Source: an uncultured bacterium (GTDB taxonomy: Bacteria > Patescibacteriota > Gracilibacteria > BD1-5 > UBA2023). Taken from it: a DNA stretch of 64,000 nucleotides. The notes under the pieces were generated by a model that was not told the origin of the DNA, searched no databases, and saw nothing but the letters and a program-made list of their open reading frames with translations. The DNA is taken from NCBI GenBank assembly GCA_903908595.1, contig CAIVSN010000116.1, positions 454 to 64,453 of the forward strand, read 5' to 3'. Positions within the stretch are counted from its first letter, which is position 1. Each line of letters starts with the position of its first letter. A program made the translations under genes and the position numbers. Positions 2,467 to 52,578 of this stretch are shown here, one piece after another.

Positions 2467-2874
2467 TTATTTTTCTTCTTTCGGGAGCTTATCGGGAATA
2501 ATTGCAGGAAGGCTTTCATTGCTTTTTTCGATAATGATGTACGCGCTTCCGATGTTTCCCGCGGCGTCTTTGGCCGTGACGACGATCGGGGTGAACTGCC
2601 CCTCGAGGGCTCTCATTCCGGCTCATTCGACGACGATGAGTTCCGGGGAAGTTTTGTCGTCCGTGACCCGGACTTGGACGTCGATGGCATCTCCCGAAAC
2701 GACCTGATCGTTCCGGTAGTTCACGAATTCGATAGTCGGAGCCGTCACGTCGGGCTTCGGTTTGGCATATTTCCGGACGGACGTATACCGGTTGTCGGCG
2801 GAGATTTCGGACATTCACCAAAAGCAGAGCCCGGTCACCAACGCTATCGACACGAGTATGTTGAAATTTCTCAT
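2467..2874 (-). CDS. Small secreted/anchored protein (135 aa)
   Basis: Track ORF 2623-2814 extends across TGA 2815-2817 up to ATG 2872-2874 (MRNFNILVSIALVTGLCFW, signal-like). It also extends across TGA 2623-2625 down to TAA 2467-2469. The start lies 3 nt after the upstream gene's stop. The last ~11 codons lie inside a family-B repeat fragment. Confidence 0.55.
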
Positions 2875-2877
2875 ACG

Positions 2878-4269
2878 TTAGAATTTTTCGTGGTAAATAT
2901 GCTCGAATCCCCGGGATTTGAGCGCTTTGACGCTCGATTCCACCAATTGCGGATTCCCGCAGACATAGAACTCGCAACCCTCGGGGAAATCCAATTTCGT
3001 CACGTCGATCCTCCCCGTCTCAAAACCGGCGGCGGTTTCGCGGGAGAGGTACGTGACCGTTTTGAGGTTCGGAATTTTTGCGAGCCGGTCGGCATAGAAG
3101 CGGCTTTCGGAATCCCGCACGCCGAAGAGGAGGATCTTTTCGGTTTCCGGAATATGCGACATCATATTGACGATTGGCGCGAGCCCGGTGCCGGTAGCGA
3201 TGAACGCCTTCTTGGAATCGGTAGGCCGCAGGACGAAAGAACCGGAGACGTTTTCGATTCGCAGCGTATCCCCGACTTTCAATTTTTTCAGCGCGTTGCC
3301 TCCTCTCCCTTCGGAAATCCTAATGCAGAAGGTCAGCTTCGACCGATCGGAATCCACGACGGAATACGGGCGGACGAACGTGCCGTCCCGATCCGAGAGC
3401 ACCACCCGGGCGTATTGTCACGGGATGACCACGAACGGCGTGGCCGTTTCCACCACGAGTTCCATGGTCGTGGAATTCAGCATGGCAATCTGCCGCACCG
3501 GAGCGTCTACCGGCTCCCGGTCGTCGGCCGGCTCGGAAACGGGCACGAAATCCCTTTTGGATACCCCGCAGACCGGGCACGCCCAATCGTCCGGGATGTC
3601 CTCGAACTTCGTCCCCGGCGCGATGCCGCCGTCCGGATCCCCGAGTCGTTCGTCGTAGACGTACCCGCATGGCACGCAGAGGTATTTGGTAACGGGTTTT
3701 CCCAATGGGTTCGCTTGCCCCTTCCGGGAAGCGTCCTTGCGGAAAAATGCCACGGTCCGGAAAAATATCACGGCGCCGATAATCGCCATATACCATTCGT
3801 CGAACCTCGAAGCGAAGGCGATATGGAGCGCCGCCATGAGGAAGAGCGGGTACGCGAGGGTTTGGATTTTTTTCCAAAAACCTTTCAGCAACCGCACGGA
3901 AACATCGTTGGAAGTGACGCCGAGCAGGAAAATTATCACAAATGCCACCGTCCCCGAAGCAACGTCCAGTTCCAAGAAATGTTCCAGGACGAAGAAGGTT
4001 TTCTGGTATGCGTATTCCGCGTAGAAATATACCGCCATATGCCCGATCGCGAGCAAAAAGGCAAAAATCCCGAACGTTCTCCGATACGGCGCCCAACCGG
4101 GGCGTTCGGTCAGGGCGATGATCGGGGTGACCGACATCGCGAGGGCGAGATACAGGAAAGAAACCCTCCCAAAATCCCGAAGCAGCAGGTTCGCGGTTCA
4201 TGGGTTCATCGCGTAGAACGTGACAAAAAGGACGGCTCCGGGAACAAGGGAAAGCAGGTATCGGGTCAT
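2878..4269 (-). CDS. Fusion protein: ferric-reductase-like transmembrane domain + rubredoxin + FNR-type FAD/NAD(P)-binding oxidoreductase (NOX/FRE-like architecture)
   Basis: Same-frame track ORFs 3418-4137 and 2878-3405 are joined by TGA 3418-3420, and extend upstream across TGA 4198-4200 to ATG 4267-4269. TM part: [11 protein letters not shown]...LHIAF. Rubredoxin knuckles: CVPCGYVY...WACPVCG. FNR motifs: RPYSV, GTGLAP, CGNP. Ends in TAA. Confidence 0.8.
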
Positions 4270-10608: not shown

Positions 10609-10774
10609 TATACCCAACGGGAATTGGTTTTCGGTATTTTACGGTCATAGATTCGGAACAGGTTTCATTTTTCTTCTTTCGGGAGCTTATCGGCAATAAG
10701 TGACCGAAGAAAAAAATGAAAGATGTCCGAATATGTGACTGGAAAAACCGGGAAACCAATTCCCGTTGGGTATA
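10609..10774. repeat. Family-B element, full-length copy. It is a 166-bp imperfect palindrome with 22-bp termini TATACCCAACGGGAATTGGTTT.
   Basis: The left arm and the reverse complement of the right arm align over the whole length. The centre is catttttcttctttcgg...ccgaagaaaaaaatg. Intergenic. Confidence 0.8.
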
Positions 10775-17677: not shown

Positions 17678-17712
17678 TATACCCAATAGGAATTGGTTTC
17701 CTATTGGGTATA
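17678..17712. repeat. Family-B minimal hairpin (15-bp perfect stem, loop ttggt)
   Basis: tatacccaataggaa-ttggt-ttcctattgggtata, located between convergent genes. Confidence 0.85.
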
Positions 17713-43723: not shown

Positions 43724-46654
43724 CTATTGTAAAAGCGTAGGCGAATTTCGTACCGAATCGTCGGCGAATTTCGGCCTTTTGGCGTTCCGGAGGTACTCCG
43801 TGATTTTCCGCCCCTTCTGCTCGTATTGGCTCGCCAGAATCGGATGTTCGCACACGTTCTCAAAAATCTCCGTGACGAATTCGTAGAGTTTCGGCATTTT
43901 CTTATCGCCCATATGCATATACTCGAAGTACCCGATTTCGAAAATCAAAGCGATGATGAACGGGTCGACGATCTGGTCGAGCATCCCGATTTCCTTCCCG
44001 TTATCGTCGCGTTCCATCATGGAATAGATCGATTCGTCGGTTTCTTCCGAAAAATCCACGTTCGCGAATTGCTTCAAAAATGCCGTGAACACGTCGTTTC
44101 TCAGGCTTTTTCTCCGATCTTCGGAAGTTTCCTTCGGTTTCTTGTTCTTGCCGAGCGAATCGTCGATCTGGAAATCCTCCATATATTTGAGGAGATCGTT
44201 GAAATAATCGAGCGTAAATTCGATATCGTCGCCATGGACCCTCGCGAGCGTCCGGGAATAGAAGAGGTGCTTGGCAATATCGGCCCATTCCACCCGCTGG
44301 AGCGATTCGATGCGGTCGATTTCGTCGAACATCCGGATGTCGTACTGGTCCAAGAGCTCGTCGGACAGCGTTTCAAGCCGCAATGGATCCGAGAACAGGA
44401 GCGTCCGGCAGGCGCGGTGGAAAATCTCGGGATCGCCGTTCGCGGAGAGTTCGAGATACGTGCCGAGATAGTCCGGATGGTCTTCTGGCAAATCCTCGAT
44501 GAGTTTCAAAAGTTTCGAAGCGTCGTATACGCTCTGGTCCGGGCGTTTTTTCGCTTCTTTTTCCATAATCAGCCGGTTGGCCCGGGCGATGTCCGAGAGA
44601 AACCTCGGATCCTGGGTCTCCTGGTGGATTTCCTCGAAAAGCCGGAGGGCCATCTTGGGCTTCGGGGCCGAATACAGGTAGTATTCCGCAATCCTCGTCC
44701 TGGCCCGGAGATTGCCGGCGGCGGCGGCATCGCGGAGGATGGAGAGGCCGCTCCGGATTTCGCCGTACGCAATGGCGGTTTCCCCGAACATCGCGAGGAT
44801 TTCCGCGGGATAGCTCCCGTCGGGAAGGATATTTTCCTTGAGGATATCGGCAACGATAACTTTGAGGTCGATCGGGTTCTCGGGATCGAAATCCGGTCGG
44901 GTCGTCAGCGCCACGACCAAATCCTCCGGCGCGTGATTGCCGGAAAAAGCGAGGTTGAGCATCGAGGAGACCACCTCGGGATCATGGAGATCGGCTTGGG
45001 CGAACGCCGACAGCGCGTACCGTTCGTACCCGCAGTTCTGGAGCAGCCGCCCGAACTGCTTGGCGGCCGCGGGAGGCATGAAATCGAGATTGATCTTCTC
45101 GATCATCGCTTCCGTATAATCCACGTCGGCTCCGTAGAGGATCGCGGCCATCGTGAACGCGACCAGGCTTCCGTAGTCCTCAAGCGTGGGGGTATTCAGC
45201 TGGAACTTGCCTTCGAGCACGGCGATCTTGACCGCGTAATAGTTCTCTTCGGCCTTGAGCACGGACATCGCGGACTTCTGCATCAGGATGTAGAAATCGG
45301 CAAAATCGTCTCCGAGCAGCTTGAATATCGACTCGATCCGGGCGTGTACCAGCGTCAGGTCGTGCATCAGGGGCTTCAATGTCGCGAGGTCGTGTTCCTC
45401 GGCAAATTCCTTGAGCGTCCGGATCATGTCCGCTCGGTCGGGAGTGATCGCGAACCGCGCCGCGAGATAGAGGTGCGCGGAAAGCGTCGGTTCGAAATCG
45501 TCGGTGACTTCCGTATCCTCGGAATCGGCTTCTTCGTCGGATTCGTCCCCGGCTTCTTCCTTCAAAAATGCCCGGGCCCTCGGCAACGGATTTTTTTCGA
45601 GGAAATCCTTGAGCAGCGCCCGTTTTTCCCATCCGCCTTCGTACAGTCCCATGACGAAGGTCACGAACTGCTGCGAAGCCGGATAATTGCGGAATTCTAT
45701 CGCCGCGAGCCGCAGTCCCCGGAGCTGGTACAGTATGGCTTCGGGCGTGCCTTCCTTCTGTTCTTCCAATCCGCTCGCGACCGCTTCGAACAGGTCCTTC
45801 CGGAATCCTGATCCGAGAAAGTGATCCGCGCCATTTTCTCCCAGTTTTTCGATCGCGTCGAAGTCCCTCGGGAACCGGTAGTCCCGCAGGTGGGTTCACA
45901 AATCGCCGTCGAGCGGCTCCCCGAGATCCCGCAGGTATTGGAACAGCGGAATGGCCTCTTTGGAATTTTTCGTGATGAAGTGGACTTGCGCCAAGGCTCG
46001 TAGGGACTCGACGTCCCGGTACTGCTCCCATCCCATGGAGAGGATCCGTTTCGCGAGCTCGATTTTTTTCTTTTCGAGGAGGATTTGCGCGTACGGCACG
46101 ATGGCCGCGGCATCGCCGTCGAGCTGGAACGCGGTCCGGAAGGATTTCGCCGCCGGCATGGTTTTCTTGGCGACGTACCTGAGGTACATCGCGTAGGCCC
46201 GGTCGAACTTGGGATCCCACTCGCCCCGGGCCTCGATTTTCTCAAGGAATTCTAGGAAAAACGCCTCGAACCGCTGGGAAAACAGTTCCCGTTTCCGGCC
46301 GAATTTTTCGTCGGCATCCGAATCCTGCGACCAGTAATCATGCCCCATGATCGCGATGACGTTCTCGCACAAGGCGCCCGGCACCTCGTTCATGATCCGG
46401 TTCAGCCAGCTGAAAATCCGGACCAGCCAGCCTTTTTCCAAGAGCTGGAGCGAAATCTTGACGATGGTTTCCCGGGGCATCCCTTCGAGGGAAGGAATCG
46501 CGTCGAGGCACGCGCCCGCCTGGGACTTGGACGCGGCGAGGAGCCGGTAGGCCCGCTGTCCGTCCTCCTCGGCGGAAAGGCGCAACATCGCCTCCTTGTC
46601 GAAATACGGGATAAATGCGGGATTATCGTTTTTACCTGGGGCGGGAAGGTTCAT
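43724..46654 (-). CDS. Large hypothetical all-alpha protein (976 aa)
   Basis: Same-frame track ORFs 45896-46654 and 43724-45769 are joined by TGA 45896-45898. Ends in TAG. No family recognised. Confidence 0.6.
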
Positions 46655-46778
46655 ATGGCGGGATTGGATTTGGTATTTTATAATTGAATAATTTGCAAAG
46701 TCAAAAGATAGCGCCGAGGGATTTTTTGTTTTGACATTCTTTCCGAAGAACTGGATGGGTGTAAAGATAATCCGGGAG

Positions 46779-46823
46779 TATACCTAACCGAATCTATGGC
46801 CATAAAATACCGAAAACCAAATT
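46779..46823. repeat. Family-B arm fragment (inverted)
   Basis: The reverse complement, aatttggttttcggtattttatggccatagattcggttaggtata, aligns to the left arm of the 10609-10774 copy. Confidence 0.65.
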
Positions 46824-46825
46824 CG

Positions 46826-46991
46826 CTTAGTCTCTAAGCAAAAATAAGTTGCAACTTTGCCGCGTATGCATGAGGTATCAGGCAAGGCGACTCTTACGCA
46901 GTGGAGCGGGCTCCACAAGTATGAGGCAACGATGGCTGATATCTTATGCATACGATGGGAAAGTGTAAGTTATTTTTGCTTAGAGACTTAG
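46826..46991. ncRNA. Rod-like structured element of ~165 nt. It is either a candidate ncRNA or a palindromic mobile element.
   Basis: A 22-bp closing stem (cttagtctctaagcaaaaataa / ttatttttgcttagagacttag), a 19-bp inner stem with two G-U pairs (cgtatgcatgaggtatcag / ctgatatcttatgcatacg), and an apical hairpin gtggag-cgg-ctccac. Confidence 0.4.
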
Positions 46992-47134
46992 GTATATTTT
47001 TGGAATTTGGGGAAAGTGACAATGCAACCATGGGAATGACACGCTCAAAATCGAATTTGACAATCGCGATACGGTCCATATATTGCGGACGGCTCAACCA
47101 AAATCAGTTGGAGGCCGCAAAATAGGAGTATACC

Positions 47135-47485
47135 GTGGAAATACAAATATACCTGATTGGCTTCGATCTCTGGCTTCTCGTCCTCACGACCCTGCTCGGA
47201 ATGACGGTAAGCACGATCGGATATGTGAAACGTTTGCCGAACGGGAAACGGTTCGATATCGTCAAAGCATGGAAAACGTCAATCATTGCCACAATGTTGC
47301 TATTGTGGGGATTGATCATCGCGCTCATGGTCTGGTTTTCTTACGAACCGGAATCGTTCGGCAAGTTTTTCTACTATCCCATCCAACTCTTCTCTGCCGG
47401 AATCGTCGGCGAAACGTTGGCGCTCGGGTTGTCCTGGATTCTCAAAGGGCATCGCAATTCCCTTCTGAATCTCGGGAAAACCTGA
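47135..47485 (+). CDS. Small membrane protein (116 aa) with standard-code hallmarks. It ends in TGA.
   Basis: AGGAG 47124-47128 lies 6 nt before GTG 47135. It has about four hydrophobic helices. The ORF closes with TGA 47483-47485, and an intrinsic terminator follows at 47520. Under code 25 the frame stays open to TAA 48992-48994. Confidence 0.5.
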   Translation: MEIQIYLIGFDLWLLVLTTLLGMTVSTIGYVKRLPNGKRFDIVKAWKTSIIATMLLLWGLIIALMVWFSYEPESFGKFFYYPIQLFSAGIVGETLALGLSWILKGHRNSLLNLGKT

Positions 47486-47519
47486 AATCTTCCCCGGGAA
47501 ACCCCCGTGGAAACCCCCA

Positions 47520-47551
47520 ATCCCGGAACGGCGACGTTCCGGGATTTTTCT
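47520..47551 (+). terminator. Intrinsic terminator
   Basis: aatcccggaacg-gcga-cgttccgggatt, followed by ttt. Confidence 0.75.
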
Positions 47552-47624
47552 GAATCGGGAATCCCGGGATTCCATTTTTTGAAAATCCCCGTACAATGCC
47601 TGCCAATCCTAATCATAACCCATT

Positions 47625-48437
47625 ATGAACACGCCACCATTTTCCCTCGCGCTCGGCGGATGAGCCGCCCGGGGACTCGCCCATGTCGGAATCATACGGT
47701 ATCTCGAAGAACACGGGCTCCGCGCGGAAGAAGTCTCCGGAACGAGCATGGGATCCATCATCGCGGCGCTCTACGCCTATTGAAAGACGTCCGAAGAAAT
47801 GCGGAATATCTGTGCCGATATCAAGTTCGTCAAGCTGATCGATCTCGATCTCAAGAAATGACTCCTCAAGGGGAACAAGATCGAAAAGCTTCTCGAATCC
47901 ATATTCTGAAACGCGAAGATCGAGGATTTGAAAATGCCCTTGAAAATCGTTTCCGCCAATATCGACACCGGAGAAAAACGCGTTTTCGAAACAGGTCCGG
48001 TCGTCGACGCCATCCGTTCTTCCATCAGCATTCCCGGAATCATCATGCCGAACGAACTCGGCCTCGAACGGCTGGTTGACGGGGGCATCGTCAACAATCT
48101 CCCCGTGGAAATCCTCAGGGGCAAAAACGTCATCGCCGTTTCGGTCTTACGGGACGTCTCCCGTCCAATCGACATGAAACTCAAAGTCCTCGGGTTCGAG
48201 ATGAACCAATCCATTTTCTGAATCGGGTATCAGATCTTGCAGAAAACCATCGACATCATGGTAAACCAGAACGAAAAAAGGTCGTTGGAATCGGAAAAGC
48301 ATATCGTCCTGCTCGAACCGAAATTCCCGGGAATCGATTATTACGAATTCCAGAAGTACGACGAAATCATCGGCATCGGATACGCTACGGCCATGAACGC
48401 CGGGCTGATTGGCCGATTATCCGAAAAATTCGAATAA
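47625..48437 (+). CDS. Patatin-like phospholipase
   Basis: ATG 47625. Frame-0 track ORFs 47928-48221 and 48237-48437 are joined with upstream sequence across 5 TGAs. Motifs: LALGG[TGA]AARG (GGGxRG), GTSMGS (GxSxG), DGGIVNNLP (DGG). Ends in TAA. Confidence 0.85.
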
Positions 48438-52543: not shown

Positions 52544-52578
52544 TATACCCAACGGGAATTGGTTTCCTGTTGGGTATA
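52544..52578. repeat. Family-B minimal hairpin
   Basis: tatacccaacgggaa-ttggt-ttcctgttgggtata. Contains one G-T pair and covaries with the 17678 copy. Confidence 0.85.

Follow-up and report, generated by a model that had tools for sequence, protein, structure and literature searches.

The genome of an uncultured Gracilibacteria bacterium carries, in a gap between two divergent genes, a segment of about 160 nt that folds into a long rod. The question raised by this locus is whether the rod is a regulatory RNA, a retron-like hairpin, or a palindromic mobile element, all three of which had been proposed in a first-pass annotation of the window, the 64,000-nt stretch of DNA analyzed here. We find that positions 46830–46987 of the window are a copy of a lineage-private MITE family, a reading to which we assign a probability of roughly 0.85. 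This conclusion follows from the combination of many copies, sharp ends, terminal repeats, target-site duplications, and a recoverable empty site. The family was previously undescribed, and the kind of element is ordinary and already known. We refer to it as family C, which is distinct from families A and B of the first-pass annotation.

Extent and structure of the element

The 480-bp gene-free gap around the element is confirmed under genetic code 25, in which UGA is read as glycine, and extends from 46655 to 47134. It is a divergent intergenic region, with a minus-strand gene of 976 aa starting at 46654 and a plus-strand gene for a small membrane protein starting at 47135; the products encoded around the window copy are a TPR-like protein, the small membrane protein, and a patatin. 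The element had also been described as richer in AT than its surroundings. This holds in comparison with the flanking genes (45.6% GC in the element versus 50–57% in the genes) but not in comparison with the remainder of the gap, which has a GC content of only 40.1%.

Folding of 46816–47001 by RNAfold produced a single unbroken rod of −95.6 kcal/mol, in agreement with the rod-like fold noted earlier, whereas 200 dinucleotide shuffles of the same segment averaged −45.2 ± 4.1 kcal/mol (z = −12.4) and none of them equaled the native fold. The individual helices that had been pointed out are all present in the sequence. The outer stem joins 46826–46847 with 46970–46991, the inner stem joins 46863–46881 with 46936–46954, G-U wobbles included, and the tip is formed by the hairpin GTGGAGC-GG-GCTCCAC at 46901–46916. 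In addition, a repeat search of the window recovered the two arms, 46826–46884 and 46933–46991, as inverted repeat I5. The element proper measures 158 nt (46830–46987) and excludes the outermost 4 nt on each side of the paired region, where C46826 and G46991 are target bases lying outside the element. A covariance model built from the 25 full-length copies described below scores this interval, which corresponds to C116:47283–47440 in the assembly, at 184 bits. The element has no coding capacity, as it is overlapped by chance ORFs of at most 67 aa only. The family-B arm that had been noticed on its left is indeed there, and the element interrupts the right end of a short copy of family B. The features of the locus are as follows.

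46675..46704, minus strand: promoter-like site TTGACT-18-TAAAAT of the 976-aa gene (consensus scan only; outside the element)
46779..46829, no strand assigned: left part of the family-B host, TATACCTAACC...CCAAATTCGC-TTA, whose arm at 46788–46830 has more than 50 relatives in the genome
46827..46829, no strand assigned: left target-site duplication TTA, with the same TTA directly repeated at 46988–46990
46830..46987, plus strand: element proper, copy of MITE family C, with sharp homology limits at G and C in the 25-copy alignment
46830..46853, plus strand: left terminal inverted repeat GTCTCTAAGCAAAAATAAGTTGCA, from the 24-mer search that found 78 ends genome-wide
46863..46954, plus strand: inner stem, asymmetric conserved core, and tip hairpin (from the fold and the 25-copy alignment)
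46964..46987, minus strand: right terminal inverted repeat, with 2 mismatches relative to the left repeat
46988..46990, no strand assigned: right target-site duplication TTA (from sequence and family comparison)
46991..46996, no strand assigned: remaining right-hand end of the family-B host, GGTATA, separated from the left part by the insertion (from the empty-site reconstruction)
47057..47084, plus strand: promoter-like site TTGACA-16-TATATT (11/12 matches) of the membrane-protein gene at 47135 (consensus scan only; outside the element)

The window copy is located between the two divergent promoter-like sites, neither of which is interrupted. Upstream of the 976-aa gene, synteny with the same-genus relatives is lacking, and an orthologous empty site was not found there. 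In the closest same-genus relative (L033, G001:C36), a gene resembling IS200/IS605-type TnpA lies upstream of the orthologue of the 976-aa protein, at 2582–3052 on the minus strand, and encodes the motif HVVWITKYRF.

Dispersed copies, target site, and nesting

Copies of the element were sought in the window's own assembly, which comprises 2.41 Mb in 186 contigs. A first whole-genome search returned about 27 near-full matches at 85 to 96% identity as well as fragments, and BLAST combined with alignment defined 25 full-length copies of about 158 nt on 22 contigs. The pairwise identity among these copies is 77 to 97%, with a mean divergence of 11% (range, 2.5–23%), and the flanks of the dispersed copies are unrelated. 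Shortened, nested, or remnant copies number about 40, and about 25 partial matches were returned by BLAST. When the 24-mer terminal repeat was searched with up to 5 mismatches, 78 ends were found genome-wide, mostly in plus/minus pairs spaced 133 to 135 nt apart. In the alignment of the 25 copies with their flanks, similarity starts abruptly at G(TCTC...) and stops just as abruptly at (...GAGA)C, while the fewest shared variants are found in the core, at alignment columns 51–113.

Identical TNA trinucleotides occupy both flanks in 15 of the 25 copies, as TTA/TTA, TAA/TAA, and, in one case, CTA/CTA; the duplications of the other 10 are imperfect. The palindromic mobile element reading is thereby borne out, including the copies elsewhere with target-site duplications that had been named as the mark of a plain MITE. 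Pairs of the form T[AT]A/T[AT]A are direct in 14 cases and inverted in 2 (binomial p about 0.002, calculated by hand). Because the middle base of the TNA is identical in those 14 pairs and complementary in only 2, the trinucleotide lies outside the inverted repeat and constitutes the duplication. Moreover, the inner G and C are invariant in all 25 copies, whereas the outer bases vary, with C in 18 copies and G in 19, so the duplication is of 3 bp and not of 5 bp. The preferred target is thus C-TWA-G, with the TWA duplicated, and conservation beyond the C at −1 and the G at +1 was not seen among the 25 copies.

The state of the locus before insertion can be reconstructed by joining the window flanks with one TTA, which gives ...AAAACCAAATTCGCTTAGGTATATTTT... 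This sequence matches uninterrupted family-B ends, with 97% identity at C38:11564–11601 and further matches in C167, C50, C160, and C155. Since the rebuilt site is an intact family-B end, the family C copy was inserted in the CTTAG that ends a family-B copy, and the empty site is recoverable from paralogous sites in family-B termini. Family C lies within family B in C116, C85, and C177, the last two of which occupy the same family-B site. The reverse arrangement is also found, as family B resides at a TA within family C copies at C39:40012–40323 and C158:25746–25870.

Family B itself consists of TATACC...GGTATA palindromes, and its arm has more than 50 matches genome-wide; other positions in the window are 10609–10774, 17678–17712, 52544–52578, and 2412–2511. 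It appears to target TA, judging from the copies that sit at TA inside family C copies, and like family C, it occurs in full (about 166 nt) and minimal ends-only forms. Chimeric repeats at C91 (~34913), C126:28889, and C51 (~26546) fuse the first 18 nt of the family C terminal repeat to family-B sequence comprising the interior and the far terminus.

Shortened derivatives of family C measure 79, 46, 44, and 40 nt, and many have duplications of their own. Five internal forms of 44 nt (C12:144–187, C50:8567–8610, C142:13562–13605, C144:43711–43754, and C158:22154–22197) consist of the left terminal repeat followed by its reverse complement, which makes them perfect left-arm/left-arm palindromes, and 3 of the 5 are flanked by perfect TNA duplications. 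Three contigs (C50, C78, and C95) start at the palindrome center AAGTTGCAACTT, and C78 and C50 probably join across a mini palindrome with TAA on both sides. Smaller remnants of the form TNA-GTCTC-TNA-G occur 15 times genome-wide, compared with 4.3 expected from base composition. Four of them share one position in family-B termini (C18 (~4329), C51 (~16458), C161 (~5908), and C186:3075), where the terminus contains an 8-nt insert made up of GTCTC and a TNA: TATACC-TAA-GTCTC-TAA-GCGAATTTGG. In sequence, this insert looks like the footprint of a MITE deletion or excision, and the family-B remnants could have arisen through slippage between the CTNAG of the terminal repeat and the duplicated target.

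The target also brings the element into contact with gene ends. A stop codon of a long ORF (145–1420 aa) lies inside or touches the target in 8 to 9 of the 25 copies, with 5 copies in one sense and 4 in the other. Among permissive CTWAG sites, 11% overlap a stop codon by a crude gene model, compared with which the copies are enriched (p about 0.001–0.004); under a model that calls just 75% of the genome coding, this enrichment is suggestive only. In every CTWAG, one strand reads TAA and the other TAG. Because the site holds these codons and the terminal G and C of the element rebuild it, a copy would be able to sit on a stop codon without destroying it. TAA and TAG are the only stops left in a code in which UGA specifies glycine, and both are contained within C-TWA-G, which offers a simple mechanical reason for the pile-up of the element at gene ends. 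The pentamer CTWAG is among the rarest in the genome, with an observed/expected ratio of 0.12. Specific avoidance of it was considered and rejected, as a general depletion of CTA and TAG explains the rarity fully (Markov observed/expected, 1.07). The lowest observed/expected ratios of all pentamers, 0.06 to 0.18 by base composition, belong to those with CTAG, CTAA, or TTAG, and the lower-order depletion of CTA and TAG accounts for these as well.

Family C was detected in this genome only. BLAST found no match in 40 relatives, five of which belong to the same genus, and a covariance-model search of 89 genomes of the same family matched the own genome alone. Exact core and terminal-repeat patterns were not matched in GTDB genome contigs, JGI metagenome contigs, or IMG/VR, and blastn found no match in plasmid and phage collections.

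Conservation of pairing and possible modes of transposition

The consensus rod of the 25-copy alignment contains 57 pairs, and 97.7% of the pair cells are paired. Changes on both sides have occurred in 12 pairs, compared with 5.1 ± 1.3 in shuffles (0/500) and 1 to 6 in slid controls. The two ends of the element co-vary (TCTCTAAGC/GCTTAGAGA, TCTCCAAGC/GCTTGGAGA, and TCTCTCAGC/GCTGAGAGA), changing jointly at terminal-repeat positions 6 and 7. In addition, one private compensatory double change is found in each of six copies, where about 0.08 is estimated by chance from the singleton rate. When read in the plus sense, one-sided changes produced G·U in 87 cells of 25 columns versus A·C in 20 cells of 13 columns, and in 25 of 25 copies the fold of the plus sense is the more stable one (means of −82 kcal/mol for plus and −66 kcal/mol for minus). 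Since the 25 copies share ancestry, the fold bias counts as roughly one observation, and the wobble bias is weak when counted by columns (25 versus 13; two-sided p about 0.07). Taken together, whole-rod compensation and a wobble bias on one strand hint at a single-stranded hairpin step. The G-U pairs had been put forward as an argument for folding at the RNA level; what stands of it is a weak hint of single-strand folding for the family as a whole, while the status of an RNA gene is not supported.

Private single mutations among the 25 copies are about as frequent in the core (0.29 per position) as outside it (0.36; p = 0.57), and this even spread implies that resident copies decay neutrally. 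Pairing would accordingly matter in lineages that are still transposing, and not for the host.

We consider it probable, at somewhat better than even odds, that a DDE transposase of the IS5/PIF-Harbinger (PHIS) type mobilized family C, since a 3-bp TWA duplication within C...G is the signature of that superfamily. Under this model, family C moves, or moved, in trans, and the cognate enzyme would either have been lost or be missing from the fragmented assembly. Its spread, or its survival in transposing lineages, would depend on a fully paired rod, as suggested by compensatory changes that keep pairing well past the terminal repeats. A DDE enzyme that binds each end separately does not account for the joint changes of both ends at those two terminal-repeat positions, nor for the private compensatory double changes of the six copies.

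A candidate enzyme was sought in the own genome. No match to DDE_Tnp_1_2 (PF13586) or DDE_Tnp_4 (PF13359) was found there, nor to Y1_Tnp/RAYT (PF01797), and no transposase of the IS5 or PIF type was recognized. The only matches to DDE_Tnp_1 (PF01609) were an IS4-family transposase at C117:678–1868 (NF033592, 232 bits), carried by a 2.1-kb contig that probably corresponds to the insertion sequence itself, as well as an IS1380-like transposase at C37:91–1491 with a fragment at C39:30909–31514. In the 186-contig assembly, no pair of terminal repeats 0.2 to 6 kb apart enclosed a transposase or coding segment that could represent an autonomous partner; the pairs at this spacing defined two coincidental segments only, of ~3.7 kb and nonhomologous. 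Likewise, no autonomous element bearing these terminal repeats was found in the assembly or, by exact pattern, in public collections. Many accepted MITE families also have no known autonomous partner, and multicopy insertion sequences are often missing from metagenome bins. The fragmented assembly means that absence of the transposase is not proven. IS5-like remnants were present in 4 of 201 genomes of the same order, and one of them ends in ...C-TTA-GGGCC...

An alternative is a REPIN-like, hairpin-dependent element whose ssDNA or RNA hairpin, instead of two separate terminal repeats, is recognized by an HUH/Y1 enzyme or by an unrecognized enzyme outside the IS5/PIF group. Compensation along the whole 57-bp rod, terminal repeats and the six private double changes included, would be accounted for in this way, as would the plus-sense wobbles, the more stable plus-sense fold, and the 44-nt left-arm/left-arm palindromes, which give the impression that one arm was copied from its partner. 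The lack of an IS5-type transposase in the genome points in the same direction, and REPINs are also compensated (PMC3116915). However, gene conversion between the arms could mimic compensation without selection, the strand bias shrinks to about one observation and 25 versus 13 columns, and no Y1_Tnp/RAYT gene was found in the genome. Moreover, directly duplicating 3 bp of a palindromic target is characteristic of DDE enzymes, which make staggered cuts in both strands. We therefore regard hairpin-dependent mobility as improbable, and we hold at equally long odds the bolder proposal that a strand-specific single-stranded hairpin intermediate coexists with the 3-bp C-TWA-G duplication in a genome that has neither an IS5/PIF-type nor an HUH transposase. 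If it were true, such an intermediate would signify an unrecognized enzyme or a new mode of transposition in the Candidate Phyla Radiation (CPR), and the same mechanism might explain the ends-only palindromes of both family C and family B.

Two further readings assign the rod a function in the host. Copies that are MITEs by origin could have been adopted as cis-acting RNA elements, such as 3′-UTR stabilizers, RNase III sites, or terminator-like hairpins directly behind stop codons. Transcribed hairpin-forming MITEs are known, with terminators among the roles suggested for them (review, PMC10969869); as RNA, the rod has a very stable fold, and 8 to 9 of the 25 copies abut a stop codon. Insertion preference alone explains that association, however, given that C-TWA-G always contains TAA or TAG, and the copies at stop codons show no preferred orientation (5 versus 4). 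In addition, private mutations are evenly spread, the window copy, with divergent promoter-like sites on either side, is not part of a 3′ UTR, and no T-run follows the rod, which is thus not an intrinsic terminator. Adoption by the host is marginally less probable still than hairpin-dependent mobility. The least probable reading by far is a structured regulatory RNA with a gene of its own (a 6S-like or other small RNA) or a hairpin of the retron msr/msd kind. A rod-like fold of ~160 nt with G-U pairs in a promoter-containing intergenic gap had suggested it, yet the Rfam search advised in the first-pass annotation, run on 46000–48000 at E ≤ 10, returned nothing on the element, and the consensus scan detected no promoter-like site inside it or just upstream on the plus strand. 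A conserved regulatory RNA is expected to be single-copy and shared with relatives. Family C is neither, with 25 copies and no match in any relative searched, and its private mutations are those of neutrally decaying sequence. As to the retron, no reverse transcriptase is encoded among the neighbors, and multiple copies with target-site duplications are incompatible with such a hairpin.

Related elements and genomic context

Several known systems resemble the MITE family. Maize PIF prefers CWCTTAGWG, and the bacterial IS1031 and IS427 groups of the IS5 family make short TA-centered duplications. PIF/Harbinger elements duplicate TWA, and NuwaII, of the PHIS superfamily, uses C-TNA-G, an extended target that family C reproduces exactly as reported (PMC4482050). 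With Tourist-like MITEs and PIF-Harbinger, family C shares a short, noncoding body, terminal inverted repeats, and the 3-bp TWA duplication. However, PIF/Harbinger and NuwaII are eukaryotic, whereas family C is bacterial, has no linked transposase, and forms a compensated hairpin over its whole length. Similarly, IS5-family elements and the MITEs derived from them resemble family C in their 2- to 4-bp duplications at palindromic, stop-codon-like targets, but no such gene is found in the own genome, and the GTCTC... repeats match nothing in public collections.

REPINs depend on a single-copy Y1 (HUH) transposase, and neither they nor IS200/IS605 elements are known to make a target-site duplication. 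Like REPINs, whose compensatory changes preserve the hairpin, family C consists of dispersed intergenic hairpins of ~100 to 160 nt that are confined to one lineage and have compensated pairing (PMC3116915). Unlike them, it carries duplications, in a genome that yields neither a RAYT gene nor any other Y1_Tnp match. A resemblance to the Correia (CREE), ERIC, and RUP MITEs is also apparent in the size of ~100 to 160 nt, the hairpin transcripts, the intergenic position near genes, and the internally deleted short forms. These elements, which are either IS630-like or without a known origin, duplicate TA, and they have no sequence similarity to family C, which matched none of them in Rfam.

For annotation, the outcome is that a false lead is removed, as the element is not a new regulatory RNA. 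A further outcome is the record of a MITE family private to one lineage, in a Gracilibacteria genome with UGA recoded to glycine; in a full-text search of the literature, no paper was found that mentions MITEs together with Gracilibacteria. Whole-rod pairing in a family with no matching transposase bears on how bacterial MITEs are recognized and copied.

Gracilibacteria usually have very small genomes. The own genome, at 2.41 Mb, is roughly double the size of those of the same genus (0.9–1.3 Mb in five genomes; 0.7–1.8 Mb across the family), and it contains at least three families of hairpin repeats, which insert within each other. It could be useful for studying transposon expansion in a lineage that is otherwise streamlined. 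Many of its segments are repeated at 85 to 95% identity, and the reported contamination is 5%. The two MITE families make up well under 1% of the extra DNA, so the rest would consist of paralogues, strain mixture, or binning. Other long repeats look like ordinary paralogues, for example, of ankyrin-repeat proteins. A ~930-bp repeat family with at least 12 copies by self-BLAST was considered as an insertion sequence and rejected, as its members are type-IV-pilin-like paralogues. They include C19:2147–3060, C125:2159–3085, C132:194–1120 and 44655–45589, C144:25563–26491, and C22:17519–18449, and they are 85 to 92% identical, sharing the N-terminal motif KGFTLVELIVVITILAILG and diverging in their downstream parts.
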